Part shown: positions 12,255 through 37,320 of the stretch, in pieces
How the letters are laid out: every line of letters starts with the position of its first letter
Numbering within the stretch: position 1 is the stretch's first letter
Origin: Bradymonadia bacterium
GTDB lineage: Bacteria; Myxococcota_A; Bradymonadia; UBA7976; UBA1532
Reading direction: 5' to 3'
DNA length: 64,000 nucleotides
NCBI GenBank assembly: GCA_049889275.1
Contig: JBMHDS010000049.1
Span: forward strand, 61,501 to 125,500
Made by a program: the position numbers and the translations under genes
Notes under the pieces: generated by a model
What the model saw: only the letters and a program-made list of their open reading frames with translations
Databases searched by the model: none
What the model was told of the DNA's origin: nothing

Positions 12255-12319
12255 CGTTTCCCTTAATTTGCGTACGGTATCCGACGAGACTCGTGACGGC
12301 GTTAATCTAACAAGCAACA

Positions 12320-12335: not shown

Positions 12336-12402
12336 AGACAGGCGTTTCTTCGATTTCCCCTCAACGAGCGGATTTATACACACATTGATGGCCGCTGTCG
12401 TG

Positions 12403-13809: not shown

Positions 13810-13944
13810 GAGACCTGTTTTCTCCCGTGCGTTGGCCTGATGGCACATGCTCGACTGAATACACCAAACGGTTCCTGTTTTGGAAGAACGCTGGGCGAAT
13901 ACTCAAGTCTTTTCAGGCCGGCGCGTTGGCTTGCGGCCGTCCTG

Positions 13945-15555: not shown

Positions 15556-15659
15556 GTGTGGATCTCCTTCTTCCGCAGAATGATAACAGAGTTTTTCTTC
15601 GAATGTGCAGCAAATACCTGGGATGTGGATTCGCCCCTACTCTAAAGCGCAATCGGTGC

Positions 15660-16379: not shown

Positions 16380-16396
16380 CGTTCCTCCGCCAAATG

Positions 16397-19576: not shown

Positions 19577-21190
19577 ATGTTGAAGCGATACCTACCAATA
19601 TTGTGCGCCATCTCTCTGTCATGCGGTGAACCAGATCCGACTTCCGTCAGTTTGCAAGTGTATCCTGCTGAAGGCGCGATGCATGACAACGTACTCGTCG
19701 ATAACAGCGCATCGTTTATGGAGCTGTTGCTGACGGGCGGCCCGCGCCCGTTCGTCGAACGCTTTTCGCTGACAGGTAGTAGCGGTAGGCTCACCGACTT
19801 GCCTCTCGGTACCGGATATCAGCTGACAGCTCGAGGCTACCAAATGAACGCTGATGGCTCCTCGTCCTTAGTTTTTTACGGCGGGACGTCTCGTTTTGAT
19901 GTGACCGGTGATGGACTGCCGCCGCTTTCCATTCAGGTGGGCCGCGCGAACTGTGTCGCTTATAACCGACCGTCGATCTATCGCTCGCTTATCGGCAAGG
20001 CTGACCTTGTTGATAAGCGAGTCGGCTTTGCTGTCACTAAGTTGCCCGACGGTCGCGTTCTGATTACGGGTGGGGCGGAGCTCGATGCCAACGGAAATAT
20101 TCAGTCGATTTCCGATACCGTAGAACTCTACGATCCGGTCCAGGGTCAGTTCATCTCGCTGCTCGACGCGTCGGGCATACCCGTGCGTATGAGCCAGCCA
20201 CGCGCCTTTCATACAGCCGTGGCGCTCACTGATGGCTCCGTTCTTCTAGCAGGCGGCCAGCTCACCGCAGCGGGCGATCTATCCAATAGCGTGTCCATGT
20301 TCTTTCCAAACGGCCCGATTTTCGAGGGCCCGGTCAGCGCACCTGACTTCATCGCTCGAAAATCGCATCGAGCCAGGCGCCTTAACGATGGTTCAGTTCT
20401 CCTCGCCGGTGGCCTTGACCTCAATGGACAGCCGCTTGCATCAACCTATCGCTATTTCCCTGCAGACCAGTCGTTCCGTCCACAGGGGGACATGGCGACA
20501 GCGCGCAGTGGTCACTCTCTAAATGACATAGAGCGCGGCGGCGAGCTGGCTCTGGTTGCGGGCGGCTACAACGGGAATGGTGTTCAGCGGACCATAGAGA
20601 TTTTCACGACAAATGCGAATCAAGCCGGATGTTTTGGTGGGCTCACACCCAGCGCGACTACGGGCTGCTGGATCTCGCTCGGAACCGCACTCGAATTGCC
20701 GACACCCGTTTGGGGACATTCAGCGGTCACTGTGAATAACGGGTCCGAGGTCGTGGTGGTCGGTGGATATACATCGTCCGACCGCACTCAGGTATCGCAA
20801 GAGGTCACTGTGATTCCTTCATCGCTGAGTGGTACTCAGAGTGCCGGCACCCTAGGCGTTGGTGGTGGTGACTTGGCTGTCGCCGTGACTTCAAACGGGC
20901 AGTCACCTGAGCTCGTTGTGGCTGGTGGTCGTCAGGGAGATACACCACAACAACGGTTTGTTCGACTCGTACGATCTCAAGTCAGCGATGTGGTGCAGTA
21001 TCAGCAGCAGGAGCTGGCTCCAGGCTGCGTGCAGCAGGGATTTCCAGAAGCTCGGTATGGTGCTGAGGCGATCGCGCTGGATAATCAGACCGTCTTAGTC
21101 ATCGGCGGTGCGAATCGAAGTGTTAACGGGTTTTCGTCGACACGTAGAGCAGAACTTTTCTTTCCCGCAAACGTGCCGGCCGGGCTCTAA
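19577..21190 (+). CDS. Kelch-repeat (7-blade propeller) lipoprotein
   Basis: Lipobox SLSC; seven hydrophobic-GG blades (VLITGG, VLLAGG x2, ALVAGG, VVVVGG, LVVAGG, VLVIGG); PRAFHTA, ARSGHS. Confidence 0.85.
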   Translation: MLKRYLPILCAISLSCGEPDPTSVSLQVYPAEGAMHDNVLVDNSASFMELLLTGGPRPFVERFSLTGSSGRLTDLPLGTGYQLTARGYQMNADGSSSLVFYGGTSRFDVTGDGLPPLSIQVGRANCVAYNRPSIYRSLIGKADLVDKRVGFAVTKLPDGRVLITGGAELDANGNIQSISDTVELYDPVQGQFISLLDASGIPVRMSQPRAFHTAVALTDGSVLLAGGQLTAAGDLSNSVSMFFPNGPIFEGPVSAPDFIARKSHRARRLNDGSVLLAGGLDLNGQPLASTYRYFPADQSFRPQGDMATARSGHSLNDIERGGELALVAGGYNGNGVQRTIEIFTTNANQAGCFGGLTPSATTGCWISLGTALELPTPVWGHSAVTVNNGSEVVVVGGYTSSDRTQVSQEVTVIPSSLSGTQSAGTLGVGGGDLAVAVTSNGQSPELVVAGGRQGDTPQQRFVRLVRSQVSDVVQYQQQELAPGCVQQGFPEARYGAEAIALDNQTVLVIGGANRSVNGFSSTRRAELFFPANVPAGL

Positions 21191-21422: not shown

Positions 21423-24400
21423 ATGATGTTGAAACGATCAGGTGTGTTCACATTCGCATTGGTGTGCCTGGTGTTCTGCGTGACACCGGTCGGGCACGCA
21501 CGTGTTGATGGTGAACCACACGCACTCTATGCCCAACATCGATTGTTTGGTGGCGTGGTGACCACAGGCAATACGTTGATGACACAATCTGTGGTTGCCC
21601 CCCAGGTCAACAGTGTGCTGCTTCCTCAATCGGCGGGCGATGTTCGTGGATTACCCTTCGACGCTGAGTTGGAGGGCGCCTATCTCTTCTGGAGTGGCAG
21701 TCTTGATGGCGGTATCGATCGAACCGTAACTCTCACGGCAGCGGACGGTACACGCTTCAATAACGTCCAAGCCGATCGCTGTGTATCTGTGCCCAGTTTA
21801 GGTGGTTTTTTCTATTGCCGCGCCAATGTCACCGACATATTGCGTGATAGACCAGGGCCCGGTCGGTTTAACGGGACTTATTTCGTCGGTGATGTGCGCG
21901 CATCTGTCGGTCAACTACGGCAAGATGGTTCGTGTATTGATCGCTTCTGTCAGGCTAAATATGCTGCGTGGAGCCTCGCGCTTGTCTACCGTTCGGCAAC
22001 CGCTCGCACATTACGCGACGTTTTCATTCACGATGGATTTCGCGGCCTAGATGAGGATGAGAACTCGCCGGGGGTCGATCGCTTCACCATTCGTGGATTC
22101 GATTTTCCCGAGGGTGGACGCGCGTCGCTGAGTTTCTTTGGTTTAGAAGGGGATTCGTTTTTGGGGGTCCCACCCCAAGACACCGATCCGATCATCCCCT
22201 GCGACACATGTTTTGACTATTTGGCGTTCGCGGGCACGAAGCTCAATGATGCCCTGAATCCAGCCAACAACCTGTTTAACAGTAGCTCCCCAGGCGGTTT
22301 TACGCTTGGCCTAGACCTTGACAGTTTTGACGTCTCGAATTTGCTCAATATCGGTCAGACTCAAGCTGAGATTGAGGTGGGTTCAGGAGATGGGCGGGTG
22401 ATACCCGGCCGTCCAGACCCGACCGGCGGTGGCGAGTCATTCTTCCTCGGATACGTTCTGCTCAGCGTTGACCGCAACGCACCAAATTTCAGCCGGGACG
22501 GAACTCGTCTGACCGTTGTCCCGGATGAGGGGGCGCCAAACGAGCGTGTGGTGCTCACACTGCGGGTGACCAACGAGGGGACTCGAGATGCGCCCAATAC
22601 AACCGTTACGCTGCGTCTACCACAGGGCCTGACTTATCTGCCCGATAGCCTTCGTGTCGACGGCGTTGACCCGGTGGCGGGCGCCGAGGTCGCTAATCCG
22701 CTAGCCAACGGTTTCAACCTTGGCCTGATCCCGTTCCGGGGTGACACAGACCGGCTGATAACGCTTCGCGCGACCGTGGATGGCGACGCTGAGCCTGGCA
22801 CGCGCATCGTAAGTCAAGGGACGGTAACCGCAGACACCTTGGAGTTGCCGGTCACCACCAATGAAGCGGTCCTGACCGTGCTTGGGGCGCTACAAATTGA
22901 GTCAGCCTCGAAGTCGGTTCGTGATGGCAACGGGGACGGTGTATTTGCGCCCGGTGAGGTCGCGAGCTACACAATCACCATCGCCAATCCAAATGTCCGC
23001 TCTGTTCAAGGCGTAACCATCCGCGACACCTTGCCTGCCTATCTAGACATTCTGCAGGTTGTCTCGACCAGTGGCGATGCAAGGCACAACCTTGAGAATG
23101 GTGAGATCGAGTTTACCAATGTCACCGTTTTGCCCGGCGCTGAGGGCGCACGGGTCAGCATTGTCACCCGAATCCATGATGAGGTGCAGTTGCTCGCTGA
23201 TGGCGTCCCGCAGGCAGAGATCAATGGCCTGGCTGTCGATAATCAAGCGACGGTGATCAACGGCAATCGAGTGTTGAGCACCCGTGACCCATCACCCGTG
23301 GATGGCGCGCCCGATGGGGTGACCCGTTTTATCATTTCATCCGCATTCAACATTGCAGTGGATGGTACCATCAAATCCGTTCGTGACCTGAATGATGGCG
23401 CTTTAGCGCCAGGCGACGAGTTGGAATACACCGTTCGCGTGGTCAATGGTGGCACACAGAATGCGCTGACATTCATCGATGATGAGTTTCCCGCTGGGCT
23501 GGGCGAATGTCGGCTCGTCTCTGAGTTGGCTGACGTCAGTTGCGAAGGTGGCCGGCGTCTGCGGGGCTTTGTCAATGTACCGGCCAATGGGCGTATTGAG
23601 GTTGTCTTCAGGGGGACGGTGGCTGCTGAGGCCAATGACGGTACGGTCATCCAGAATCGGGTTGTTTTGACGGCGGGCAACCAGCGGGTGGAACGTTTGA
23701 GTGATGCACTCACGGTGCAGGCTGGGCCAGACTTGAGCCGACTCACAAAGAGCGCCATCGGTGTCGTTGACGGTGTCGCTGTGCCCGGTCAGACTTTCAC
23801 CTATCGCATCAGCGTGACCAATTCAGGTAATCAGGCCGCGAGAAATTTTCGTATTGTCGATCCGTTACCGATTCGGTTTGCCGCCGTTAATCCTGCCGAT
23901 GGCGGCCGTTACGATGCCGTCTCCAATACGGTGTCTTGGGATATCGCGGAGCTCGCACCAAATTCAGCTGCGGTGGTTTCCTTCGAGGTCACCCTGAGCG
24001 ACGCCGTTGCCAATGGTACAGACATCTCGAACCAAGCGGAGATCAGCTTCGAGGGTACGCGTATTCTGTCCGATGATCCGTCGACGGACGTCAGTCTCGA
24101 CCCAACTCGAGTTGTTGTACGCTCGCAGCCACTCTTGGTGGTCACGCAGCGCGCCTCGCTCATTTTTGCCCAGCCGCGGGATACCATCGTCTATGACATC
24201 ATCATTCGTAATGAGGGAACAGATGCAGCGGAACGTGTTCGGGTGGATGGGCAACTACCCAACGAGCTGTTTCGGAGCATTGTGGCGGTGGATGGCGCCG
24301 TCGAGGCGGGAGCGCTCAGTTGGCGCTTTGACTCGGTACCTGAGCTGGCCCGTATTGAAGTCGGACAGTCGGTCGCCCTAAGGGCCCGGGGGCGTTTGAA

Positions 24401-27400
24401 TCCTATCGTTGACAACGGAACCCGGATTTCGAGTCAAATTCGGGTGAACGCCGGCTTCGGTGATGTTGTGTCGGACGACCCGAGGACGGCGGAACCAAAT
24501 GATCCGACGGTAGTCACCGTGAGATCAGCGCCAATTTATGCGCTCAGCAAGACCGTCAGTGACCTCAATGGCGGCTCGCCTCAGGCAGGAGATCGAGTCA
24601 GGTATACACTTGCGCTTGTGAATCAAGGCAACAGCGCCGGCACCAATGTGACTGTGCGCGACCCCTTGCCACCGGAGCTTGTTGATGTGATTGCGCTCGA
24701 TGGCGGCGTGGTCGTGGGCCAACAGATATCATGGCCCAGCCGTGACCGTTTGGAGGTCGGCGCAGAGCCGCTCGTCTACGAGTTCGAAGCGACGATTCGG
24801 CGGGACTTGCTCAGCGGTGCCGTGATCGCAAATCAGGCTCAAGTCTTGAGTGATGGCATAGACCCGGCCAACAGTGACGACCCCGCAACGCCCGAGCCGC
24901 TGGACCCAACCCAACTGACCATCACGGCTGAGGCCGATTTGAGCAACTCGATCAAGTTGGTCGAACCACCCAATCCGGAACCAGGAGATGTGGTTACGTG
25001 GGTGATTCAAGTGGTCAATTCAGGGACTGTGGATGCTCGCGATGTCAATGTCCTAGACCCATTGCCGACGAACTCTATATTGGATGCCAACACCGACACG
25101 GGTGAGATAGTCAATGGCACCTTGCAGGCATCTCTTGGCGTCATCCCGGCGGGAGGGGCGCGTAGCGTGATCGTCACCGCACGCCTTCGAGATGGCCTTG
25201 TGGACGGCACCGAGGTCGCCAATCAGGCTCAAATATCTGCAGCGGGCCTCGATGTCGTACTCACCGATGATCCGTCAACTCAGGCCGATGATGACCCGAC
25301 AACGCTCGTTGTAAATGCCACGCCTCAGTTGGTCATGACCAAATTCATCGATGGCCTCGCTGCTGATTCAGTGGAGCCTGGGCAGCGCATCGACTACGTG
25401 ATTCGCATCGCCAACGTCGGGTCTGGTCGGGCTGATGATGTGGTGGTCAGGGATCCAATCCCCGAAGAGACCACGTTGTCAGATGTAGGGGCAGGACAAC
25501 TGGATGGAGATGCTGTCGAATGGCGGTTATTGGACATCGCGCCCGGTGAAGAGGCCGAATTGCGGATGTCCGTATTGGTCGACGATGTCCTGGATAACGG
25601 CACATTGATCTCCAACCAAGCCAGCCTCTCGGCACCTTTTTTAGGACCACAGCCCCTCTTAAGTGATAACCCGGCCACACCTGCGGCGTTTGACCCAACC
25701 GTCGTTAGAGTGCTCAGTGGGCCAGACTTTTCAACGGCTCAACTCACTGTCCGCGATTTAGAAGACGGCGTGTTCCGACCTGATGATGTTGTCGAGTACA
25801 CACTCTCCGTGCCAAATACGGGTAACGCGGTCGGTCGGGCCGTACAGGTGCGGGCGACTCTTCCTGAGACCTTAGAGCTCTTGAGCGCGCCTGGCGCTGC
25901 GTTAATCGGTGATGAGTTGACCTGGCGTGACCTCTCCCTTGAGCCTGGAGAGCGTCAAGTTCTCACTTTTCAGGCTCGGATCGCGACACCGTTAGCAAAC
26001 GGGCGCCAAATCGCTGTGCAAGCCCGCATCGACGGCGTTGGCATTGCAGAGCCCTTTTTGTCCGATGACCCTGCGACCCCTGAAGACGACGATGCCACCG
26101 TTCTGACGGTGACCTCGGCTGCGCTGCTCACTCTGGCTAAGGATGTTGAAATTCCCCCCGGTGCGCAGTTTACGCCGGGCAGACAAGTGACATATACCTT
26201 TGTGGTTGGTAATCAGGGCGATGCCCGTTCTGAGATTAAGCAGCTGCTCGACACCTTACCGGCCGGGCTTGTGCCGCCTTTCGATACGGAGCCCGCTGCA
26301 GAGGTCGTTGGGCGCACAGTCAATTGGACCGTGCCTTCACTTGCACCGCTAGAGGAAGCACGTTTCGTCTTGACCGCCTTCATCGCTGCCGACGCGAGCG
26401 ATGGTCTTCGGGTCGCGAATCGGGCGTCCGTGGATTCGCTGGTGGCGACGGCGACTTTTGATGTTGTCAATCAAGCTTCACTCGCCACATCCACCAAGTC
26501 CGTTCGTGCCGAGAATCCGTTTCCCGGTCAGCAAGTCAGATATACACTGACGGTTGCCAATGATGGCAGCCAGCCTGCAGCGTCGGTATCGCTCGTGGAC
26601 CGACTACCCGAGGGCCTGACCCTCATCGGTGCACGGCCGCCCGCTCAAGTTGTGGGCCGTGTTTTGAGTTGGCAGTTCGATGAAGTACCAGCGAATGGTC
26701 AGCAGACAGTCGAGGTGATTTGTCAAATCGATGCGGACGTTGAAGATGGACGCCGTATGGTCAATCAAGCGACGATCTCCGCTCTTGGCATTGGCGATGC
26801 AGTGACCGATGATCCGAGCACCCCAGCAGTTGATGACGCGACGGCGTTTGTTGTTGTAAGCCGACCGTCTATCGAGCTCGCTAAGACGGTTCGTGACGAT
26901 AACGGAGGCGTATTTAGTCCGGGTGACCCGATTACGTATCGATTGGTCATTCGAAACAGCGGTTCAAGCACAGCAACAAATCTCGTCGTTACCGATAACG
27001 TACCCGGTGGCGTCAATAACGCAGTCGCCGTTGATGGCAACGTGGTTGAAGGTGTCGCGACTTGGAATATCGCGTCATTGGAGGCGGGGGAGAGAGTTGA
27101 ACGGGTGCTCCGCGGCCGCATTGATGTCGGCGCAGCCAACGCCCAGGTGATCAGTAATCAGTTCACCGTCACTGGAGCCGGTCTCGAGGCACAAACGAGC
27201 CCCGCCGCCACGCTTGAGGTGATTACAGGGTCCGTCAACCTCAGTAAAACGGTGGTCCCGCTCGCTGGCGAGTTTCAGCCAGGTACGCTGGTTGAGTATC
27301 GATTACGCGTGACTAATGAACGCGAAGTCGGCGCAGCTGAAATCACGGTCAGTGATATTCTCGATTTTGAGTCGCTTTCGGATATCGATGTTGCTGACGG

Positions 27401-30400
27401 TGGGCTTATCGACCGAGCCAACGGGCGCATCGAATGGACGCCCCAGACGACGGCCGCGCTTCGCTTCATTCCAGCAGGAGAATTTGTGGAGCTGCGGCTC
27501 AGGGCCCGTATCGGGGACGATATTATGCCTGGTGCTGAAGTCATCAACCGGGCTCGTTCGGTGGTTCGCGGCGACCCAGCACAGGCGGAGGCGTCCGCTC
27601 GATTCACGGTTGTCGGCTCGGCGGAATACAACCTCACGAAGACCACGGCGCGTGAGCGTTACCGGCGAGATGAAACGATAGAATACGAAATCGTGCTGAC
27701 CAACCGTGGGCAGGTCGCAGGCACCAACGTGACCATCACCGATGTCTTGCCTGCTGAACTTGAGTACGTGCGCGGGTCCACCATTGTGGGTGACAGGCGA
27801 GTCGCGGACCTCCCAGAGGGTCGTTCTGCGTTGGAAGCAGGACTTGTTGTTGGTTCAGGTTCTCCAGCTGTGCTCGCCCCCGGTGAGGTTGTCACAGTTC
27901 GGTTGCGGGCGCGGGCGCGAGACGCCGTGGCCGCCGGCACCCGCGTTATCAATCAGGCGCGCATGGTCGATGCACAGGGGACTGAGGTTGATGCGTCTGC
28001 TGAAGTTCTCATCGATGGCATCCCAGATCTTTCAAATCTTGTGAAGACCGGTGTACCGGAGGCAGACCCAAGCGCGCCGCGCGTTGTCTTGGGTGAATCC
28101 ATTCGCTGGCGTATTCAGGTGGAGAACCAGGGCGATGGTACAGCCGAGAATGTACGCATCTTTGATGAGTTAAACCCTCAACATACTTACATCGAAAACA
28201 GTCTCGAGGTCGATGGTCAGGTGATGACAGACGCTCAGGATGAGGATATCGCAGAGGTCATCGACGAGACCATTCGTGTGCGTGTGGCTGCACTCGAGCC
28301 AGGGGCGAGCCTTGTGGTGACTTTCCTGACTCGCGCGGTCGCCACACCGGCTGTGTCAAATCAAGCATTTGTGGATGCCGATGGCCTTGAACGTGAGCCG
28401 AGTGATGATGGTGGTGATGACCGAAATACACCGACGCGATTAGAAATCGGCGAGCCGTTAGAGAGACGTATAGACGTATCGAAAACCCTGGTTGCGGGCA
28501 GCGGGGACCGAGTGCCCATCGGTACGTCACTCGGCTATCTATTGTCGGTTGAGAACACAGGTAACGTCGCACTCGTGGGGATTGAGATTGAGGACACGCT
28601 GCCATCAGGCCTCCGTTTCGAGGGCGTTGAGGATGCGAGCGGTCCAGTCAACGTCGTTTTTAACGATGACGACCCAGAGTTAGGGTCTGGCCAGCTCATC
28701 TTGACTGATATTGGCCTTGAGCCAGGTGCGCGATTCTCAATTACGGTGAGGGTATCGACAATCGTCTCCGAGACCCCGGAGGGAGAGCTTTGCAATGAAG
28801 CCTTCTTTTCGGCACCGGGTGTTGATGCGAGCAGCGCTAAAGCTTGTGTGGAGCTTTTCTTGGACTCGGGGTCGTTGGTCGGCACGGTTTTCGAAGACCT
28901 GAACGGAGACGGGCGGTACACCGCAACCGAGGACCTCAGTGTGACGGGGATGACGCTCAGAATCTTCCCTGAGGGAGCCGATACGCTTGAACCGGTCGCT
29001 GAGGTCACCACCGATGATGATGGGCGCTACGCATTTGAATCACTGCCGGCTGGCACCTATCGGGTCGAGGTTGTTACCGCCAATGATGTGGTGGTCAAAG
29101 TGGCGCGCGATGTGCGCCTCAGCATGGACAACGATGGACTTGAAGACGTGGTGATTGCGCCGATGGGACGCATTTATGATTCGGTCTCAGGTGTGCTCCT
29201 TGATGGCGCTACGGTGACGCTTTACGAAGACCTAGACGTCGATGATGACCCCCTCGACGCCGATTCAATCGCGCAACGTGTGCGCGTCGACCCAAGTAAA
29301 CTTGAACATCCATCTCAACAGAACCAGCGCACTGCGCACGGTGGCTTGTACCATTTTGTAGTGCGGGAACCGGGCCGTTATCTCATCGAAGTACAACCGG
29401 GGGGGGTCGCCCATGTGAGCCCCTCATTGTCGAATCCGCCCTCAGTTGGCTACGCGGCAACAGAGGACGCACGTGGTCGCATCGTCGACCAACCGCTTCC
29501 CATCGCTACAGCGGGTGTGGACCAACGCTATTTTCTCGCTTTTCAAGTTGGGGTTCGAGAAGAGCGCGTTATCCACAATCACATCCCACTCGATCCTATA
29601 TCGTCGTTGATCGATATTACGAAGAGGGCCGATCGCGCCGATGTGATGGTGGGACAAATTGTCACATTTGAAGTGACAATGACCAACCGCAGTCCGAGGG
29701 ATTTACGCTTTGACGAGAGCACAGGGTTTGGCGGCGTCATCGTCCAGGACCGCCTGCCTGCGGGTCTAAAATACGTGGCGGGTTCAGCCGTCATGACGAC
29801 CTTAGAAGCGGGTCGTGAGCGCGCGTTGTTTGCCAGTGATCCGGTTGGCGCCCGCATACTGTCGTTTGGGCAACAGATCTCTGCCGATGGCGAACCCATA
29901 CCATTTGACCTGCCATCCGGTGGTGCCCGTCGATTGAAATACCAGGCAACCGTTGATGCCTCTGCGAAGCCTCTCACCACCTTGACCAATCGAGCGTTGC
30001 TGCTGAGCGATGGGAACGTGCCTGTGACAGAGACTGCAGTGGCGTCGGTAAGAGTCGCGGCTGATCCTGATTTCGACCAAGGCTTGTTACTTGGTCGTGT
30101 GTATTGCGATACCGACGAAGATGGGCAGCAAGATGATGACGAGGTTGGCTTTGCCGGCGCTCAGCTGTACATGGACACGGGCTATAGAGTCACCACCGAT
30201 GCCTATGGTCGATTTCGTTTCAAAGATATCAACCCGGGCACTCATATGGTGAAACTGGATATGCGTTCGGTGTTGCCGGGGGCGACGCTGACTACGCAAG
30301 AGTCTCGAATCATATCGTTTACCCGGGGTCTGCCTGCCCGCGTCACATTTGGCGTCACTTGCCCCGCCGATAAGGTCACCGAGGCTGTGACGGCTATCAC

Positions 30401-33400
30401 CGATGAAGGCCTCGCCATCGCGATGACGAAATGGGGCCTCGTTCAGCGAGACCTACGCTATGATAGGGCGCGTCAAACTGTCCGACTCGCGGAGTTCGAG
30501 TTAAGCCTCCGCGCGGTGACGACAGAGCATGAACTTCGGGTGGCTGATGAACAGAAGGCGATCACCATCAGACCGACTGTAAGACAACCTGAGGTTTGGT
30601 CGAATTGGTCGCTCATGGTGCGTCAGCCCGACGGTGAAGTCGTAAAGGTATTAGACGGCGAAGGTCCGCCTCGAAGAATCGACTGGCAGGTGCCAAATGA
30701 TTGGCCTGAGCAGGCTTGGTCATATCAACTCCGTTTAGTTGGCGCGAGCGGCTCAGCTGCGGGTAGCCCGTGGATGCCTGTGACGGCAGGTGCAGCTACG
30801 AAACCACAAGTGATCGCCTCGCTATCGGGCGATGGCTTCCTGAAGGGGCGTCGACTCGCCAAACCTTTCGTCGCAGCGCTAGATAAAATCCTCCCAAAGA
30901 TAAAGTCGCTCACGGGTCCAATTGAGATCGCGGTCCATTTCGATGACACGAAAGGGCCACTCACAGCGCGTTCATTGACCCGTAAACGAGCGGAAGATGT
31001 GGTCGATTATCTGGTGTCCAAAGGGATTGAGCGGGGCAAGCTTAAGGCTGTCGGTTACGGCGGTCAGAAACCGATTCGACCCAATATCACCGAGCGCAGT
31101 CGACGTAAGAATCGACGCGTCGAGATTATCCATCTCGGGCCACCCATGAAGCCCGTGGGGCAGACCACACCTGAGGTGGCTGAGCAAAAGCTCGACGAGG
31201 GAACGAAAGCACCATCTGGTTCGGCGAAGCTAGACGCAGAGACGACATCCGCAGTCGACTTAGTGGCACAGAAACCCGCCGCCGAGAGCGGTGACACAAG
31301 CGCGACCGAGATGGCCGAGGATGGAACGTCTGTCCGAGAGTCGGTTTCGGTGACTCTGGGTCTCGAGAATTTGGCACTGGCGCAAGGCGCGCCATCGCGA
31401 CGGGTCTGGGTGCCGAGCCGACGACCGTTACCGATTCGAGTGACAGCGCTGAGCGGGGCCTACATCCAACGGATTCGAGCGGCGATGCCTGCGGCCAAGG
31501 CGCAACAAAGGTTCACGCAGCGGCGTTTCGAAGGGCGCCTCTCTGGCAAGCGTATCGATATGCTGGGGAGAGTGCTCAGTCGACCTACGGTCGCGCTCGA
31601 GAAGCAGACAAACAATTCAGCGACCAAAGCGGCAAAGAGTCGATTGAGTTGGCGGGTAGACAGCCCTGGTACGGCGAATCGCTGGTCGTTCATGGTCACA
31701 GACCAGTCAGGGCAAGCGATTCATACAGCGAGTGGCGTTGGAAATCCGCCCGCGGTTCTCCGTTGGACGCCCACGGAACGACTCGCTAAAGGCACCTATG
31801 GCGCTCGACTTACGGTGATCGGCAGCCGACAGGTGATCCAATCAGCGACGTCATATTTTGGCGTTGATACCAAACCGCAGTCGAAGGCACCGGAACCGAT
31901 CCTCGCTGTCTCGGGTTATCGAGCAACGCTCGCGGACAATGGTACATTTGATGTGTCTGCAAAGCTCAGCCAAGAGTCTGCGCTCGTTCTGGATGTGGAA
32001 GATAAGCTCGGCCGGTGGCTGGTTTTACTCCCGTCAACCGTTGGTTCGAGCAAGTCATCGGTTGAATCTGAATCGAAACAAGAGAGCACAGCTGTGGTTG
32101 ATGCACGCTCACGTCCTGCAGGCGCAGGCTCAGCGCTTCCGTCACCAAACCGCCCAGGTGCAGGCGCGCCGATCGGTGCTTCGGCTGTTCCTGGTGCTTT
32201 GATGCCGGGGTCACCGGCGCGGCAGAGTGCAGTCTCTTCTTCTCCGTCCTCAGGGTCTTTGAGTCTGGAAGGGCAGAAGCTCTCTCGAGTTGGGGCTCGG
32301 CCGACGAATCTCACTCTGTTGGAGAGCCTCGTGCCGGGGCGTCGGCAAGCTCAGGTCGAGGCTAAGTCGGTGCTCGATGTCCGCTTGCCGCGCGTTGGCG
32401 AAAAACTTAAGGAGCGCGCCATACCTTTTCAAGGGACCACCGAGCCCGGTCGCACGGTCACAGTCAACGGGCGGGCGTTTCCGGTAGACGAACGCGGTGG
32501 ATTCGGCGGAAGCATAGCCGTTCATGGGAAGACAGCGAGAATCGAGATCGTTTCAGAGGGTGAGGGCGGTGACCGTTCGATTATCGAACGTACCTATGAG
32601 ACCCCTCAACAAAGTTGGTTCTTGATGGCCCTCGGTGAAGGCGTGACCGGTACTATCGGCTCTGAACTCGATGGCGTACAGGCACACACGAGCACCGAAA
32701 TAGGAGAACAGGTCTACGTACATGGTCGTGCGGTTGGGTGGCTACGCGGCTATGCCTCCGGTGAGCAAATCCTTGGCGGTTTGTTTAAGCAATATAGCGT
32801 GGACGCCCACGTGGACACCGCGAGGCGAGACGAGTTCACTAGCGCATTCCGCCAGTTGATCGATCCGACGCAGTTCTACCCCGTCTACGGCGACCAAAGT
32901 ACCGAAGAGAAGTTAATTAACAGCAACGGGCCGGTCTATGTCTTGATCAAGGCCGATAGCAGTCGAATCAATGTCGGTAACTTTAGAACCACGCTAAAGG
33001 GTGTTGAGCTTTTCAGATACGATCGTACGCACTACGGTGCACAAGTGGTCGGTGACGTCAAAACCGGTGACATGCGCCATGAGGTCACTGTTTTCGGCAC
33101 CGATGAGGAGACGGAACGACAGCATGGCTATGTTGAATTCCGTGGAACAGGTGGCTCACTCTACTATTTGCCTCACCGGGAAGTTGTAGAAGGTTCTGAA
33201 CGGGTCTTTCTCGTAGAAAAAGACCGGTTGTCTGGCATGGAACGGCGTCGTTTGTCCCTCGTGAGAGATCAGGATTATCGCATCCGTTATATGGACGGCC
33301 GAATCATGTTCACACGGCCTGTCTCGTCGTCTGCCTTTGGCCTTTTTGGGGTCCAAGAAGGAGATTTGGGTCAGGCACCCCTCGATGGGCATCCCGTTCA

Positions 33401-35330
33401 GGTCCTTGTCGAATATGACCATCGTGATCCCACCGCCCCGGGCGAGCGAAGTCTAGGTTTTCATGCTCGAGAGTCCTACAAAAACAACGTCAGCGTGGGC
33501 GGAGGATATGTACAGTCCGGACAGGTTGGGGCCGCCACGCCACGCTACCGGTTATGGGGCGCGGATCTTAAGCTGCGTCATGGACGCCGCACTCATTTTG
33601 ACGCCGAATTCGCCGAAAGCAGCGGTCAGAACAGCCCGAGTCTCTTCAGCGAGGACGGCGGTCTGACCTTTAGGCCTTTTCACCGCCGCTCGGCTGATTT
33701 TGACCGCGGCGCGAGTTTCTTGATTCGCGGCGGACTTGAACTCGACGATCTGGTCGGTCAAGCGCAGAAAAACGCCTGGTATAACGAGGGGTATTACCAG
33801 TACATCGCACCGGGGTTTTCATCGGGGGGCACGATTCAACAGCAAGGCTTGGAGCGTTACGGTGCGCTTTCTGTTGGATATCTCGGCGATGGCCACACGG
33901 TGCATGTACGGCATGACGGTTGGCGTGCTGCCGAACGCCAAACTCAAGGCTACACCTTCACCGACCTGCAGCCATTCAGGCAGGAAACAAGTCGCTTAGG
34001 TTACGCCTACCAGATGGAAAAGCTCAGGCTTGATTCCGAGTTTGTGTATACACAGTATGACCAGGGCGTTGACGAAGAGGCGATGCGCATCGGCGCCCTC
34101 GCTGCCGGAGCCGAGCTTGATTTGAATGCGCGATGGACCCTTCTCGCTCAGCAGCAGGTAACCGTTCTCGGCGATCGTCGATTGCATGAGACCACTGGGG
34201 ACTTGTTTACAACCAGCGTTGGCGCGCGGTATCAGGCCGCCAAATCATTGTTCTTTGAGGCTGTTGAGACCCTCCGATGGTCGGGTGATAATGCCACACG
34301 AGTAGGCATTCGCAGTCAATTGAGCGACCGACACACTTTCTATGTTCAGGAACGCTTTACCCAAGAGCAGGGCCGTCAATCTGCAACTACGGTCTTGGGT
34401 GGTGAAGAGCTGTTCGGAGAGGATAAGTCCGGTCGGGCATACGGTGAATATCAATTGGAGACCGGTACGGCGGGACCGCAGAATCGTACCGTAGTTGGCT
34501 TAGGTAAACGCTGGCTGTTGAGCAAACGACTGACGCTTGATGCGGCATATGAGCGAAGCCAAACATCAAGCCAGGTCCCTGGCGCGACAAGTCGGGATGC
34601 GCTCTCTTCAGGTGTCGCCTGGTCACCGATTCGGCCGATGAAATTGAGTGGTCGATATGAATTTCGGTTGGAGGACCATGACGCCGAGCGGACAAATCGT
34701 CGGGATATCTACCAAGTGGTCGCGCTCAACCGGCTCGATCTGAAGTTAAGTCCAGATTGGTCTTTCTCGGCCGTCGGTAACTACAGCCATACCTTCGATA
34801 TAGAGCTCGCCGGCACTGAAGCTGAGCTGCTTGAACTCAGCCTCGGATTGGCTTACCGGCCGGTGGTGATCAATTGGTTTGTTTTGCTCACCCGCTACAC
34901 AAAACGTTACGAACAGCGTCCTACAGACATCGCCACTGAACTCGTGACCCGCGAAGAAAATGATGTCGGGACATTGATTCCAATCATTGAACTCCCAGGT
35001 GGGTTTCAGCTGGTTGAAAAACTCGCGATCCGGCGCACAGCCTATCGCACAGCTGAATTGCCCACGAGCATTGGGTACACGCTGTTGTGGATAAATCGCT
35101 TGAACTATCACTTGACCAATGCCTGGGACGTGGGCGCGGAATATCGGCAATTGCACACCACTTTGGCGCAGAATCAGCAGGACGGGTTCCTCGTTGAGAT
35201 AAATTACATCATCAAGAAGAAGATTCGATTAGGCTTAGGCTATAACTTTACCCAGTTCTCCGACGACGAGTTTGCTCGGCTTGATGAAACCTTTGGGGGA
35301 CCATTCTTCCGCGTGATCGCAAACTACTAA
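21423..35330 (+). CDS. Giant 4635-aa outer-membrane/surface protein: tip domain, about 17 DUF11-like repeats, SdrD-B-like domains, OmpA-like domain, C-terminal beta-barrel region
   Basis: Signal peptide; repeated K..PG..Y.I.V.N.G..D.LP..NQA units; GTVFEDLNGDG and GRVYCDTDEDG; OmpA-like RA..V.DYL..GYG..P..NRRVEI; amphipathic strands ending FFRVIANY. Confidence 0.9.
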   Translation: MMLKRSGVFTFALVCLVFCVTPVGHARVDGEPHALYAQHRLFGGVVTTGNTLMTQSVVAPQVNSVLLPQSAGDVRGLPFDAELEGAYLFWSGSLDGGIDRTVTLTAADGTRFNNVQADRCVSVPSLGGFFYCRANVTDILRDRPGPGRFNGTYFVGDVRASVGQLRQDGSCIDRFCQAKYAAWSLALVYRSATARTLRDVFIHDGFRGLDEDENSPGVDRFTIRGFDFPEGGRASLSFFGLEGDSFLGVPPQDTDPIIPCDTCFDYLAFAGTKLNDALNPANNLFNSSSPGGFTLGLDLDSFDVSNLLNIGQTQAEIEVGSGDGRVIPGRPDPTGGGESFFLGYVLLSVDRNAPNFSRDGTRLTVVPDEGAPNERVVLTLRVTNEGTRDAPNTTVTLRLPQGLTYLPDSLRVDGVDPVAGAEVANPLANGFNLGLIPFRGDTDRLITLRATVDGDAEPGTRIVSQGTVTADTLELPVTTNEAVLTVLGALQIESASKSVRDGNGDGVFAPGEVASYTITIANPNVRSVQGVTIRDTLPAYLDILQVVSTSGDARHNLENGEIEFTNVTVLPGAEGARVSIVTRIHDEVQLLADGVPQAEINGLAVDNQATVINGNRVLSTRDPSPVDGAPDGVTRFIISSAFNIAVDGTIKSVRDLNDGALAPGDELEYTVRVVNGGTQNALTFIDDEFPAGLGECRLVSELADVSCEGGRRLRGFVNVPANGRIEVVFRGTVAAEANDGTVIQNRVVLTAGNQRVERLSDALTVQAGPDLSRLTKSAIGVVDGVAVPGQTFTYRISVTNSGNQAARNFRIVDPLPIRFAAVNPADGGRYDAVSNTVSWDIAELAPNSAAVVSFEVTLSDAVANGTDISNQAEISFEGTRILSDDPSTDVSLDPTRVVVRSQPLLVVTQRASLIFAQPRDTIVYDIIIRNEGTDAAERVRVDGQLPNELFRSIVAVDGAVEAGALSWRFDSVPELARIEVGQSVALRARGRLNPIVDNGTRISSQIRVNAGFGDVVSDDPRTAEPNDPTVVTVRSAPIYALSKTVSDLNGGSPQAGDRVRYTLALVNQGNSAGTNVTVRDPLPPELVDVIALDGGVVVGQQISWPSRDRLEVGAEPLVYEFEATIRRDLLSGAVIANQAQVLSDGIDPANSDDPATPEPLDPTQLTITAEADLSNSIKLVEPPNPEPGDVVTWVIQVVNSGTVDARDVNVLDPLPTNSILDANTDTGEIVNGTLQASLGVIPAGGARSVIVTARLRDGLVDGTEVANQAQISAAGLDVVLTDDPSTQADDDPTTLVVNATPQLVMTKFIDGLAADSVEPGQRIDYVIRIANVGSGRADDVVVRDPIPEETTLSDVGAGQLDGDAVEWRLLDIAPGEEAELRMSVLVDDVLDNGTLISNQASLSAPFLGPQPLLSDNPATPAAFDPTVVRVLSGPDFSTAQLTVRDLEDGVFRPDDVVEYTLSVPNTGNAVGRAVQVRATLPETLELLSAPGAALIGDELTWRDLSLEPGERQVLTFQARIATPLANGRQIAVQARIDGVGIAEPFLSDDPATPEDDDATVLTVTSAALLTLAKDVEIPPGAQFTPGRQVTYTFVVGNQGDARSEIKQLLDTLPAGLVPPFDTEPAAEVVGRTVNWTVPSLAPLEEARFVLTAFIAADASDGLRVANRASVDSLVATATFDVVNQASLATSTKSVRAENPFPGQQVRYTLTVANDGSQPAASVSLVDRLPEGLTLIGARPPAQVVGRVLSWQFDEVPANGQQTVEVICQIDADVEDGRRMVNQATISALGIGDAVTDDPSTPAVDDATAFVVVSRPSIELAKTVRDDNGGVFSPGDPITYRLVIRNSGSSTATNLVVTDNVPGGVNNAVAVDGNVVEGVATWNIASLEAGERVERVLRGRIDVGAANAQVISNQFTVTGAGLEAQTSPAATLEVITGSVNLSKTVVPLAGEFQPGTLVEYRLRVTNEREVGAAEITVSDILDFESLSDIDVADGGLIDRANGRIEWTPQTTAALRFIPAGEFVELRLRARIGDDIMPGAEVINRARSVVRGDPAQAEASARFTVVGSAEYNLTKTTARERYRRDETIEYEIVLTNRGQVAGTNVTITDVLPAELEYVRGSTIVGDRRVADLPEGRSALEAGLVVGSGSPAVLAPGEVVTVRLRARARDAVAAGTRVINQARMVDAQGTEVDASAEVLIDGIPDLSNLVKTGVPEADPSAPRVVLGESIRWRIQVENQGDGTAENVRIFDELNPQHTYIENSLEVDGQVMTDAQDEDIAEVIDETIRVRVAALEPGASLVVTFLTRAVATPAVSNQAFVDADGLEREPSDDGGDDRNTPTRLEIGEPLERRIDVSKTLVAGSGDRVPIGTSLGYLLSVENTGNVALVGIEIEDTLPSGLRFEGVEDASGPVNVVFNDDDPELGSGQLILTDIGLEPGARFSITVRVSTIVSETPEGELCNEAFFSAPGVDASSAKACVELFLDSGSLVGTVFEDLNGDGRYTATEDLSVTGMTLRIFPEGADTLEPVAEVTTDDDGRYAFESLPAGTYRVEVVTANDVVVKVARDVRLSMDNDGLEDVVIAPMGRIYDSVSGVLLDGATVTLYEDLDVDDDPLDADSIAQRVRVDPSKLEHPSQQNQRTAHGGLYHFVVREPGRYLIEVQPGGVAHVSPSLSNPPSVGYAATEDARGRIVDQPLPIATAGVDQRYFLAFQVGVREERVIHNHIPLDPISSLIDITKRADRADVMVGQIVTFEVTMTNRSPRDLRFDESTGFGGVIVQDRLPAGLKYVAGSAVMTTLEAGRERALFASDPVGARILSFGQQISADGEPIPFDLPSGGARRLKYQATVDASAKPLTTLTNRALLLSDGNVPVTETAVASVRVAADPDFDQGLLLGRVYCDTDEDGQQDDDEVGFAGAQLYMDTGYRVTTDAYGRFRFKDINPGTHMVKLDMRSVLPGATLTTQESRIISFTRGLPARVTFGVTCPADKVTEAVTAITDEGLAIAMTKWGLVQRDLRYDRARQTVRLAEFELSLRAVTTEHELRVADEQKAITIRPTVRQPEVWSNWSLMVRQPDGEVVKVLDGEGPPRRIDWQVPNDWPEQAWSYQLRLVGASGSAAGSPWMPVTAGAATKPQVIASLSGDGFLKGRRLAKPFVAALDKILPKIKSLTGPIEIAVHFDDTKGPLTARSLTRKRAEDVVDYLVSKGIERGKLKAVGYGGQKPIRPNITERSRRKNRRVEIIHLGPPMKPVGQTTPEVAEQKLDEGTKAPSGSAKLDAETTSAVDLVAQKPAAESGDTSATEMAEDGTSVRESVSVTLGLENLALAQGAPSRRVWVPSRRPLPIRVTALSGAYIQRIRAAMPAAKAQQRFTQRRFEGRLSGKRIDMLGRVLSRPTVALEKQTNNSATKAAKSRLSWRVDSPGTANRWSFMVTDQSGQAIHTASGVGNPPAVLRWTPTERLAKGTYGARLTVIGSRQVIQSATSYFGVDTKPQSKAPEPILAVSGYRATLADNGTFDVSAKLSQESALVLDVEDKLGRWLVLLPSTVGSSKSSVESESKQESTAVVDARSRPAGAGSALPSPNRPGAGAPIGASAVPGALMPGSPARQSAVSSSPSSGSLSLEGQKLSRVGARPTNLTLLESLVPGRRQAQVEAKSVLDVRLPRVGEKLKERAIPFQGTTEPGRTVTVNGRAFPVDERGGFGGSIAVHGKTARIEIVSEGEGGDRSIIERTYETPQQSWFLMALGEGVTGTIGSELDGVQAHTSTEIGEQVYVHGRAVGWLRGYASGEQILGGLFKQYSVDAHVDTARRDEFTSAFRQLIDPTQFYPVYGDQSTEEKLINSNGPVYVLIKADSSRINVGNFRTTLKGVELFRYDRTHYGAQVVGDVKTGDMRHEVTVFGTDEETERQHGYVEFRGTGGSLYYLPHREVVEGSERVFLVEKDRLSGMERRRLSLVRDQDYRIRYMDGRIMFTRPVSSSAFGLFGVQEGDLGQAPLDGHPVQVLVEYDHRDPTAPGERSLGFHARESYKNNVSVGGGYVQSGQVGAATPRYRLWGADLKLRHGRRTHFDAEFAESSGQNSPSLFSEDGGLTFRPFHRRSADFDRGASFLIRGGLELDDLVGQAQKNAWYNEGYYQYIAPGFSSGGTIQQQGLERYGALSVGYLGDGHTVHVRHDGWRAAERQTQGYTFTDLQPFRQETSRLGYAYQMEKLRLDSEFVYTQYDQGVDEEAMRIGALAAGAELDLNARWTLLAQQQVTVLGDRRLHETTGDLFTTSVGARYQAAKSLFFEAVETLRWSGDNATRVGIRSQLSDRHTFYVQERFTQEQGRQSATTVLGGEELFGEDKSGRAYGEYQLETGTAGPQNRTVVGLGKRWLLSKRLTLDAAYERSQTSSQVPGATSRDALSSGVAWSPIRPMKLSGRYEFRLEDHDAERTNRRDIYQVVALNRLDLKLSPDWSFSAVGNYSHTFDIELAGTEAELLELSLGLAYRPVVINWFVLLTRYTKRYEQRPTDIATELVTREENDVGTLIPIIELPGGFQLVEKLAIRRTAYRTAELPTSIGYTLLWINRLNYHLTNAWDVGAEYRQLHTTLAQNQQDGFLVEINYIIKKKIRLGLGYNFTQFSDDEFARLDETFGGPFFRVIANY
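22498..28865 (+). repeat. Tandem array of 16 diverged DUF11-like protein repeats of about 120-150 aa (a 17th at about 29600-30080)
   Basis: Manual alignment of the translation; repeats are clear in protein but diverged in DNA. Confidence 0.85.
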
Positions 35331-35457: not shown

Positions 35458-36183
35458 ATGTCTGAATCGATGGCAAGCCGCATTCTAACGGTCGAAGATA
35501 GCGACAACATTAGGCGTATGATCGCCTACAATCTCGAACGGGCGGGCTATGAAGTCTTCCAGGCTGCCCACGGCAAGGACGCCGTACGGATTCTGCAGAA
35601 GGTTGTTCCCGACCTGATCATTCTGGATGTACGCATGCCTGAAATGAACGGCTTTCAGCTGTTAGAGCTCATGCGTAAGTATCCCAAGGCGGCAGCCATA
35701 CCTGTGATCATGCTCTCGGCGTTGAGCCAGCCGGAAAACATCGATCGAGCCCTGTCTTTGGGCGTGGTTGATTATATTGTAAAGCCGCTCGATCCAACCG
35801 TTCTGCTCGCTAAGGTAAAAGAAGCACTCTCACACAGCAAAAACAGCGACGGCGGTTGGCTTGGACCCAATCGCCGGCAGTTCGAACGGGTCACTTTGGA
35901 CGGCGTTGAGCTCAAGCCGCAGCCAGGCGGTAGGGGAGTGGACCTCAGTGAAGGTGGTTTGAGTTGGCGGACGAAATCTCCACCCGCTGAGAATGATGTT
36001 TTGGTCATTGAAGCCCACGAGCTGTTTGAATTGGTGGGCATTGACGAACAGACACTGCGTGCTCGAGTCGCTTACGTAAAGCCTGTGGGCCTGGGTTATT
36101 TTCGGGTGGGCGCGGCGTTTATTGGCTTACCTTCAAACGGTCGCGATGCGGTGCGACGATACGTCAAACGGCACTTGGCTTAG
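35458..36183 (+). CDS. Response regulator with C-terminal PilZ domain (REC-PilZ)
   Basis: Receiver VEDS, ILDVRMP, LSA, VKP; PilZ motifs RQFER (RxxxR) and DLSEGG (DxSxxG). Confidence 0.9.
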   Translation: MSESMASRILTVEDSDNIRRMIAYNLERAGYEVFQAAHGKDAVRILQKVVPDLIILDVRMPEMNGFQLLELMRKYPKAAAIPVIMLSALSQPENIDRALSLGVVDYIVKPLDPTVLLAKVKEALSHSKNSDGGWLGPNRRQFERVTLDGVELKPQPGGRGVDLSEGGLSWRTKSPPAENDVLVIEAHELFELVGIDEQTLRARVAYVKPVGLGYFRVGAAFIGLPSNGRDAVRRYVKRHLA

Positions 36184-36210: not shown

Positions 36211-37320
36211 TCACAGACGCCGGCTATTGTCTCTGAGCCGAAATCGTCGGGAGCTACCTCGCCATGCCCAGACGGTGACCCAAATGCCGAGCAGAATCAC
36301 TTCAATGGGTAAATTTAGATCGATGAGTCGCATCCGTTTTTTGGCGACCGGCATTTTTTCTGGCAAGACCTTCATCTTTGTGAATCGCAAAACGTCGAAC
36401 TGCGTGCGGTCATTTAGACGGTAACCTGTCAGGTGCCCATCTGATTGATAATCCCATGGAAACCCTCTGGCTCGCTTACGCAACCGCTCAAGTTGAACCG
36501 CTGTGATCGGCTTCGACATGAGCAACTCAAGGTCGCCCTCAGACTCTGAACCGACCGGCCACTCCGAGAGGATAACCAACTCGAGCGGGACCCGGCTCCG
36601 GTCTTGTGCGCCAGTCAGCGATGGTGGGGGCTGATGTACATTAAATGCCGGGTTTTCGGCCTTGTGCGTGTAGGCGACAATCGGTGACAAAAGCGGTTCC
36701 GTCGGATCATCGGATGAGGGGGGCGTCACTTCGACCGCGAGAAATGTCCAACCTTGCTTGCGCAAATCTCGCATCCAAGCCAGCTGGCCGGCAGTGAGAT
36801 GCGCGCCGCGCTGCATCAACCATTGTCTGGTGGCTGTCCCATCCCGTAAGAATTCGTGAACGCCAAGTTTCAAATTGCGAATTCGTCCGAGCACCTCTTC
36901 ATTCGGCTCAACACCCACCTCCGGGATGACGCAACTACCGACCCACGATGTCATCTTCACATCGATGTTGCGGATAGTCGCTGATACGGGATGCAATTGG
37001 CGCAGCATGTTTTTAAACGAGCGAATATGTCCGAAGTGCGTGTTCGCTTTGCCCTTCACCGGAAAGAGAATCGTAAAGGGCTTCGTAGCCCCACGTGTCT
37101 CCAAACGAATCAATGTGGTTTGCGAACCACGAAGTGTATCAAACACCATGATCGCCTGTTCTTGGACGACGGTGACGTTCTGATCGAGCTCGCTAACGAT
37201 CAGTGCAGCCTCCACTCGCATGCACAACAGAAACGCACCAAGCGCAGCGGCCCGCCGAACCAACCACCGGACCCGCGCCAGCGAATGCATCGCAAGCAGC
37301 ATTTTTTTGTCGTGCCTCAA
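36211..37320 (-). CDS. Exported DUF2330-like protein with C-terminal TM and basic tail
   Basis: Signal-like N-terminus; QEQAIMVFD, FTILFPV, WL..G and GWTFLAV resemble DUF2330; ends LPIEVILLGIWVTVWAWRGSSRRFR. Start uncertain. Confidence 0.55.
   Translation of the reverse strand: MRHDKKMLLAMHSLARVRWLVRRAAALGAFLLCMRVEAALIVSELDQNVTVVQEQAIMVFDTLRGSQTTLIRLETRGATKPFTILFPVKGKANTHFGHIRSFKNMLRQLHPVSATIRNIDVKMTSWVGSCVIPEVGVEPNEEVLGRIRNLKLGVHEFLRDGTATRQWLMQRGAHLTAGQLAWMRDLRKQGWTFLAVEVTPPSSDDPTEPLLSPIVAYTHKAENPAFNVHQPPPSLTGAQDRSRVPLELVILSEWPVGSESEGDLELLMSKPITAVQLERLRKRARGFPWDYQSDGHLTGYRLNDRTQFDVLRFTKMKVLPEKMPVAKKRMRLIDLNLPIEVILLGIWVTVWAWRGSSRRFRLRDNSRRL

Follow-up and report, generated by a model that had tools for sequence, protein, structure and literature searches.

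Among outer-membrane beta-barrels formed by one polypeptide, the one described as the largest known or solved is that of SprA, reported to have 36 strands in a protein of >2,600 aa. The SlpA barrel, found in a protein with SLH domains, is reported to have 30 strands and to be one of the largest described, and the same source mentions that D. radiodurans has three barrels for which 38 strands are predicted (PMC9388160). Barrels of 38 and 40 strands, predicted from contact maps, were placed by Solan et al. in 2021 in a superfamily of large outer-membrane beta-barrels (PMC8346858). Here, we examined a stretch of 64,000 nucleotides (the window) from a Bradymonadia bacterium (contig JBMHDS010000049.1, positions 61,501 to 125,500) that includes a single open reading frame (ORF) with an ATG start, at 21423–35330 on the + strand, for a protein of 4,635 aa. 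This giant protein joins a long array of DUF11-type repeats to an OmpA-like domain and then to a C-terminal module of 906 aa that is dominated by amphipathic strands. A full-text search of the literature, outside which lie the supplements on the predicted 38- and 40-strand families, retrieved no description of a fusion of DUF11 repeats, an OmpA-like domain and a giant barrel, or of its mechanism.

A first-pass annotation of the sequence had proposed that the giant protein is a self-contained adhesin and translocon with a barrel akin to that of SprA. We find that the C-terminal module represents a family that is real, widespread and unstudied, the members of which would be barrel-anchored wall connectors or adhesins. 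The best explanation overall for the giant protein, and one in which we have moderate confidence, is that of a barrel-anchored, wall-tethered protein with a surface fibre.

The C-terminal module: family and strand ladder

The module covers the last 906 aa (nt 32610–35327) and its sole Pfam match is a sub-threshold one to OMP_b-brl over the final 50 aa. Both the sequence and the strand profile bear out the earlier description of approximately 900 aa of amphipathic strands ending in Tyr. With the 906 aa as query, HMMER was run exhaustively against 1.84 billion representatives of clusters at 50 % identity and retrieved 2,316 representatives at E≤1e-3, 1556 at E≤1e-10 and 647 at E≤1e-30. As the 906 aa alone find this many representatives, the family extends far beyond chance. 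The listed matches span the whole 906 aa and are C-terminal in proteins of ~1,000–5,300 aa. The module is complete in 345 of 369 matches, and of the 358 that reach the module end, 341 have it within 5 aa of the protein C-terminus. Searches of PDB sequences with the module, either as a single sequence or as a family profile, found no solved relative and matched only OmpA-type domains.

When each species was represented by one genome, at least 490 genomes were seen to carry a relative, and a metagenome scan adds at least 430 stretches with a relative. The phyla represented in the record titles are Myxococcota, Nitrospirota, Acidobacteriota, Desulfobacterota-type (Desulfuromonadales/Geobacter), Gammaproteobacteria and Omnitrophota. 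The closest relatives among the matches listed come from two Myxococcota metagenome-assembled genomes and share 77 % identity. A gammaproteobacterial clade of ~1,230-aa proteins is found in cultured members of Kangiella, Lysobacter, Arenimonas, Luteimonas and Pseudoxanthomonas. Database names for members include 'hypothetical', 'OmpA family protein', 'DUF11 domain-containing protein' and 'TIGR01451 repeat protein'; others are labelled 'TonB-dependent receptor' or 'flagellar motor protein', wrongly we think. The module is a large and widespread family without a Pfam model.

The strands of the module were located in a ridge-regularised Gaussian covariation map of the module alignment, in which sums along the anti-diagonals reveal beta-hairpins. 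The alignment was grown from 354 to 614 sequences; weighted at 80 % identity, these amounted to an effective number of 344 at 427 sequences and of 413 in the final version. At z>5.5, there were 48 antiparallel peaks and 14 peaks in a parallel-diagonal control, and lone peaks near z 5–6 are for this reason unreliable. The hairpin ladder is unbroken from aa 3731 to 4635 and includes ~38 antiparallel strands, which were delimited by eye with the help of the hairpin peaks and of the amphipathic profile. The 37 pairs of neighbouring strands have z values of 4.4–11.7, and 35 of them lie above 4.51, the 99th percentile of a null made up of 741 non-neighbour strand blocks (mean 2.51, sd 0.69).

Five strands (A, B, C, m2 and m1; aa 3730–3857, nt 32610–32993), with hairpin contacts of z 5.8–11.0 and a conserved 45-aa loop, form the start of the module. 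A long paired excursion (aa 3883–4016, nt 33069–33470) into which a small beta domain is inserted is evident from the covariation contacts. The predicted barrel core of 32 strands (aa 4017–4635, nt 33471–35330 with the stop codon) follows and ends with an aromatic residue. All 32 core strands are amphipathic, and 29 of the 31 neighbour pairs in the core have z>4.51, the remaining two being at 4.4.

Further properties are those of outer-membrane proteins. In the family profile, 36 of 40 segments have one hydrophobic and one polar face, and turn lengths alternate strictly: turns that share their parity with the last loop have a median of 13 aa and the others one of 3 aa (Mann-Whitney p=1.7e-5). 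Of 450 members, 413 end in Y, F or W, and the barrel of a Kangiella homologue passes the Pfam model Porin_4 (46.5 bits, cut-off 27). Because the C-terminus of known outer-membrane barrels is periplasmic, the short turns should also be periplasmic and strand 1 should enter from the periplasm, a topology that fits the even count of 38. An even series of amphipathic antiparallel strands, alternating turns and an aromatic C-terminus, each a characteristic of outer-membrane beta-barrels, thus appear together, and the 906-aa module is likely to be a very large outer-membrane barrel of 32–38 strands. In the usual barrel geometry, such a number would correspond to a backbone diameter of ~6–7 nm. The earlier view that the C-terminus is far larger than the ~300-aa, 12-strand barrel of autotransporters holds, as covariation indicates ~32–38 strands, in the size class of SprA.

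Several observations weigh against a single closed barrel that includes all of these strands. The first and last strands (A and 32) reach a z value of 3.2, which is to be compared with the null mean of 2.51 and 99th percentile of 4.51, and no barrel-closing contact was found by covariation among the 614 sequences, the highest value for the last strand with any non-neighbour being z 4.0. With the larger alignment, the neighbour contacts became sharper and still no closing contact was seen. Hence, the single closed barrel is something that we infer. A closing hint in the first run (4020–4600, z 5.2) fell to 3.6 with more data and was dropped. In addition, the block test is not fully independent, because the strand limits were partly drawn from the same covariation map. 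Finally, the first five strands make non-neighbour contacts (B–m2 5.4, A–C 5.1 and B–m1 4.6), and both faces of strand A are hydrophobic. These strands (aa 3731–3857) may form a separate beta domain rather than the first strands of the barrel, which would leave 32–34 strands in the wall.

That a closing contact for the whole module was not detected would also suit two or more ordinary barrels in tandem, and chains with several barrels do exist by prediction (PMC8346858); an open beta-sheet groove of the TamB/AsmA type would be a further possibility. We consider either arrangement unlikely. There is no sign of tandem small barrels because an internal closing contact was not found, the best non-neighbour pairs in the core (4.7, 4.6 and 4.4) being at the edge of the null, and linkers of ~20 aa on the periplasmic side between sub-barrels were not found either, with the exception of the 124-aa excursion. 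The turn alternation, aromatic C-terminus and Porin_4 match fit an outer-membrane barrel and not a groove anchored in the inner membrane, and the consistent completeness of the module in its relatives indicates that the 906 aa are conserved as one unit.

The link to SprA had been drawn from a motif at nt 33141–33325, and a motif is indeed found at that position (aa ~3907–3967). It lies within the small beta domain (aa 3906–3994), which a very long hairpin carries as an insertion at its tip. The contacts 3879–4024, 3889–4014 and 3903–3997 of the excursion share one anti-diagonal, and the contacts 3929–3945, 3949–3960 and 3963–3994 are internal to it. The 124-aa excursion that bears the motif has the short-turn, periplasmic parity and lies outside the barrel wall, where it may act as a knob or plug in the periplasm.

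A relationship to SprA was examined using curated hidden Markov models only. Neither Pfam SprA_N (PF14349) nor NCBIfam TIGR04189 matched the whole protein, the module or any of 12 family members at E≤10. There were also no SprA-family matches in the genome that carries the giant gene, a search that is unvalidated as none of 14 control genomes gave a match. Hence, homology of the module to SprA is unsupported, and what remains is a likeness in predicted size class. A diverged SprA/Sov homologue that exports the fibre in the manner of type IX secretion (T9SS) would account for the similar size class (~38 predicted strands and 36 in SprA) and for the presence of the proposed motif in a conserved segment. 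However, this explanation appears most improbable, given that the curated models failed to match, that the family profile search of all PDB sequences, SprA entries included, returned OmpA-type domains only, and that the module is 906 aa compared to >2,600 aa for SprA. The position of the motif off the barrel wall and the occurrence of the family in phyla not known for T9SS also speak against it. SprA/Sov itself, a barrel with large inserted domains, is a protein of Bacteroidota and their relatives and is found there alongside the T9SS parts PorV and PorK/L/M/N.

Domain organization and the location of the fibre

The order of domains given in the first-pass annotation (signal peptide, tip, 17 DUF11 repeats, SdrD_B-like, OmpA-like and Ig-like domains) was confirmed using Pfam, NCBIfam and a self-built repeat profile. 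The signal peptide (aa 1–26, nt 21423–21500), read by eye, is of the Sec type, with a basic N-terminus, a hydrophobic core and GHA followed by RV. A lipoprotein reading was dropped as a good lipobox was not seen by eye at the N-terminus, and type I secretion was dropped because the protein begins with a Sec signal peptide and belongs to no RTX family. Next are a conserved Cys-rich tip domain (aa 28–360, nt 21504–22502) and 16 contiguous DUF11-type Ig-like repeats (aa 371–2471, nt 22533–28835) with a period of ~133 aa. SdrD_B- and CarboxypepD_reg-like domains together with a seventeenth DUF11 repeat (aa 2744–2869) occupy aa 2487–2960 (nt 28881–30302). The count of exactly 17 repeats was obtained with the profile, which was seeded from one DUF11-like repeat of the giant protein. 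In Pfam, DUF11 matched in 15 stretches (E 9.5e-149 over the whole protein) and DUF7507 also matched; in NCBIfam, TIGR01451 matched in 13 stretches, and DUF11/TIGR01451 repeats are thus present in tandem. The isopeptide-domain model TIGR04226 (NCBIfam) matched at E 1.6e-29, and Pfam SdrD_B at E 3.1e-19 in two stretches, the best at aa 2487–2559.

The OmpA-like domain (aa 3125–3245, nt 30795–31157) lies between the repeats and the barrel, ~500 aa N-terminal of the latter. Between them is a segment (nt 31233–32198) in which an Ig-like part with a weak FlgD_ig match is flanked by two low-complexity linkers (aa 3271–3311 and aa 3536–3592) found in a composition scan. A Glucodextran_B-like Ig domain (aa 3651–3717, nt 32373–32573; weak Pfam match), seen also in 5 of 12 family members, directly precedes the barrel module. 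Pfam OmpA (PF00691) matches aa 3153–3231 with 34.5 bits (cut-off 27.2), and 47 solved domains of the OmpA/Pal/MotB type match at E≤1e-3 (best E 1.2e-9). Conserved positions that contact peptidoglycan are all retained, namely D in the TD motif, R in the RA motif and NRRVEI. There is, thus, good support from sequence for the view that this domain binds the cell wall.

When a local profile made from this OmpA-like domain was used to search 455 proteins with a complete module, the domain was detected in 263, and in 261 of these it precedes the module, with a median of 270 aa between the two. Of the 275 proteins that have an N-terminal extension of at least 400 aa, 237 include it. Short forms consist of a wall-binding domain and the barrel, as in a 1,372-aa Rivihabitans protein with OmpA at aa 94–197 and a 1,542-aa Trichlorobacter protein with SPOR and OmpA at the N-terminus. 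In long forms, the OmpA-like domain is preceded by arrays of DUF11, SdrD_B, Big_1, Invasin_D3, Calx-beta, cadherin-like or beta-helix type; these repeat-bearing relatives range from 2680 to ~5300 aa, and repeat number varies widely.

No match to the tip domain (aa 28–360) was found in Pfam or among PDB sequences, where only chance-level rows were returned. Its six Cys are arranged as three close pairs and it is found at the N-terminus of 44 long relatives. In five relatives the tip is 87, 87, 70, 68 and 63 % identical and the barrel module 77, 77, 54, 53 and 53 %, and this higher conservation of the tip points to it being the working end of the fibre. Stand-alone ORFs of ~650 aa in two related genomes (G005:C14:27609-28268 and G004:C32:115023-115658) carry a domain 32–35 % identical to the tip, and the tip domain hence also occurs apart from the giant protein.

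The following role is proposed. The protein would be exported by Sec and seated in the outer membrane by its very large C-terminal barrel, which the barrel assembly machinery (BAM) would probably insert by recognising the aromatic C-terminal strand. The OmpA-like domain, on its two flexible linkers, would tie the barrel to the cell wall. The core job would be that of a connector between outer membrane and wall with a wide pore, as in the short relatives a wall-binding domain and the giant barrel make up the whole protein. To this, the present lineage appears to have added an N-terminal fibre of 3,100 aa composed of the Cys-rich tip, the 17 DUF11 repeats and the SdrD_B domains. The fibre would most likely be an adhesive or sensing surface fibre, threaded through the lumen of its own barrel, with the OmpA-like domain remaining periplasmic as a stopper. 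A surface location is suggested by the isopeptide-type repeats, the adhesin-type domains in relatives, a repeat number that varies and a tip that is conserved. Because the OmpA-like domain lies between fibre and barrel, passage tip-first through the lumen would be the sole simple route to the surface. The specific proposal of a surface fibre that passes tip-first through its own barrel and is held by a wall-bound stopper is put forward tentatively, as plausible but short of probable.

Further points weigh against this role. The N-terminal part of barrel proteins is periplasmic by default, as in BamA, LptD, SlpA and the LysM domain of intimin. This default topology and the position of the OmpA-like domain between fibre and barrel together mean that a surface fibre would need an unprecedented route. 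Furthermore, among proteins with N-terminal extensions of 250–400 aa, largely the short gammaproteobacterial clade, just 24 of 162 include the OmpA-like domain.

The default topology would be kept if the whole N-terminal part, DUF11 array included, stayed in the periplasm and formed a layer or scaffold there in association with the wall, making the protein a purely periplasmic connector with the product of the upstream PEGA gene as an inner-membrane-anchored partner. This arrangement, which we consider improbable though deserving of serious attention, is consistent with the OmpA-like domain lying N-terminal of the barrel in nearly all cases and here between array and barrel, with short forms that are just a wall-binding domain and a barrel, and with a PEGA protein that reads as membrane-anchored, Pro-rich and periplasmic. 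Chlamydial OmcB, also of DUF11 type, is regarded as largely periplasmic, and its family, PF03504, is found in some relatives. However, 17 Ig-like repeats and a tip would, when extended, measure several periplasm widths by our estimate from usual domain sizes. Big_1, Invasin_D3, cadherin-like and beta-helix domains, typical of surface adhesins, occupy the same position in relatives, isopeptide-type repeats typify external fibres that bear load, and repeat number varies widely between relatives, as does protein length.

The order of signal peptide, passenger and C-terminal barrel is that of type Va autotransporters, and the fibre could in principle leave C-to-N as a hairpin via a hybrid of BamA and the barrel. 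This classical type V route is very unlikely to apply, as no autotransporter barrel family in Pfam matched the whole protein or the module and the barrel is approximately three times too long. Moreover, the folded OmpA-like domain and the ~500 aa beside the barrel would have to exit first in a hairpin mechanism.

Neighbouring genes and occurrence

Upstream of the giant gene and on the same strand are genes for a 512-aa PEGA-domain protein (18037–19575; Pfam PEGA E 9.8e-9) and, starting 2 bp after it, a 537-aa Kelch-repeat beta-propeller protein (19577–21190; Pfam Kelch_4 E 2.3e-20, with matches to further Kelch models). The PEGA protein reads as starting with a signal peptide, which is followed by a Pro-rich spacer and, at the C-terminus, by a hydrophobic helix. 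Homologues of PEGA and then Kelch precede the giant gene in the same order in all five relatives examined. The PEGA homologue is directly upstream of the Kelch gene in all five, and the Kelch homologue adjoins the giant gene in four and is ~6.9 kb away in the other (G004:C64:205407-212275). Downstream, a gene for a fusion of a response-regulator receiver and PilZ (35458–36183, + strand; Pfam Response_reg E 2.4e-28, PilZ E 2.8e-7) follows. Among 65 related loci with >1.5 kb of downstream sequence, a receiver-PilZ homologue is directly downstream in 22, and GAF histidine kinases are downstream in 33 related loci. Hence, the locus is not the self-contained single-gene system that had been proposed. 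The giant protein would act with its PEGA and Kelch neighbours, under a receiver-PilZ regulator of the cyclic di-GMP (c-di-GMP) type.

A more elaborate scheme can be built on these neighbours, in which the protein is a display machine: the ~38-strand barrel would pass folded, isopeptide-locked Ig domains outward tip-first, the OmpA-like domain would act as lock and the excursion as gate, and the PEGA, Kelch and receiver-PilZ proteins would drive or control the process. We regard this scheme as improbable, if still worth keeping in mind.

In 31 loci, from Nitrospirota, Acidobacteriota and other lineages (L035:6416-7738 and 30 others), the gene directly downstream encodes a protein of ~440 aa, the sole Pfam match of which is a C-terminal Glucodextran_B-like Ig domain (E 4.8e-11). 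As the same Ig type precedes the barrel in the giant protein, this protein could be a docking partner. Just past the receiver-PilZ gene in the window is a gene for a DUF2330 protein (36211–37320, − strand; E 2.9e-7) with a start resembling a signal peptide and a C-terminal hydrophobic stretch.

Further upstream, a signalling cluster read from translations lies at 12457–17989. It is made up of genes, all on the − strand, for a sigma-54-type response regulator (12457–13848), an FHA-GAF-adenylate/guanylate cyclase-like protein (13945–15555), an endonuclease/exonuclease/phosphatase-like protein (15660–16379) and a HAMP histidine kinase (16397–17989). The HAMP kinase clusters with the kinases that 33 related loci carry downstream of the giant gene. 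Beyond this set of genes, at 8542–12383 (− strand), translations read as a type II secretion secretin-like protein of 909 aa, GspD-like and with an unusual Lys/Ser-rich insert, and as a GspC-like PDZ protein; both genes are 9–13 kb upstream of the giant gene and on the opposite strand.

DNA near-identical to this locus is present in seawater and marine metagenomes from 10 studies. Three RNA libraries include short contigs that match the giant ORF in patches (9, 11 and 6 of 30 bins). This evidence consists of contigs, for which DNA carry-over is possible and in which uncovered bins and depth carry no meaning, and it gives a weak hint that the ORF is expressed.

Comparison with known systems

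Retained RTX adhesins of the LapA/LapE type are exported by type I secretion and consist of a long repeat adhesin lodged in a TolC-like pore, with a periplasmic stopper and control by c-di-GMP. If the fibre described here does thread its own barrel, the two systems would be alike in passing a long repeat adhesin through a pore and holding it with a stopper, and a receiver-PilZ neighbour is conserved here. They differ in that pore and fibre are here one chain with a Sec signal peptide, whereas the TolC-like pore of the LapA/LapE type is separate. A fibre that threads the barrel of its own chain would represent a new secretion principle.

Type V proteins (autotransporters, intimin and invasin) also combine a barrel and Ig-like adhesin arrays in one polypeptide, and Big_1 and Invasin_D3 are found in relatives of the giant protein. 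Intimin, in addition, has a periplasmic wall-binding domain. However, the barrel is approximately three times longer here and belongs to no type V barrel family, and the order of fibre, wall anchor and barrel fits neither type Va nor type Ve. An OmpA-like domain placed between repeats and barrel sits awkwardly with all the type V routes that are known.

SprA/Sov, as described, is comparable in that the barrel is a single chain with a similar predicted strand number and is wide enough in principle for folded domains. There is no similarity to it in sequence or profile, and the module is one third of the length, is found in other phyla and is fused to a possible cargo and a wall anchor. Were the display machine real, the spread over six phyla would point to a common and unrecognised secretion route through a barrel wider than any solved single-chain barrel.

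The families of Solan et al. and the D. radiodurans barrels share the predicted strand number with the module and were compared by strand number alone; this likeness invites the idea that they are one family. Fused adhesin arrays and OmpA-like domains are not mentioned in the main texts of those reports. In the sources available, barrels above 36 strands are known only as predictions, and this family would offer ~38-strand barrels that could be reached experimentally, as it has thousands of members, many uncultured and some, such as those in Lysobacter, Kangiella and Arenimonas, cultured. The questions raised include how BAM folds such barrels, how leakage is prevented in so wide a pore and why the barrel is so often fused to a wall binder and to adhesin arrays.

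If the fibre does not thread, the protein would instead be a new type of envelope connector in phyla that are not known to have Braun's lipoprotein. SlpA of Deinococcus and OmpM of diderm Firmicutes are then the nearest in layout, being described as having an N-terminal wall-binding domain, a spacer and a C-terminal barrel with a beta-signal, and short members of the family have the same layout. The wall-binding domain is OmpA-like here, with SPOR in addition in one member, and SLH in SlpA and OmpM. Also unlike them, the module proteins have no match to a coiled-coil family and no match to a solved chain over the barrel, and ~38 strands are predicted. Hence, the module proteins appear to resemble SlpA and OmpM in architecture and not by homology, with the present lineage adding a repeat fibre of 3,100 aa to the shared plan.

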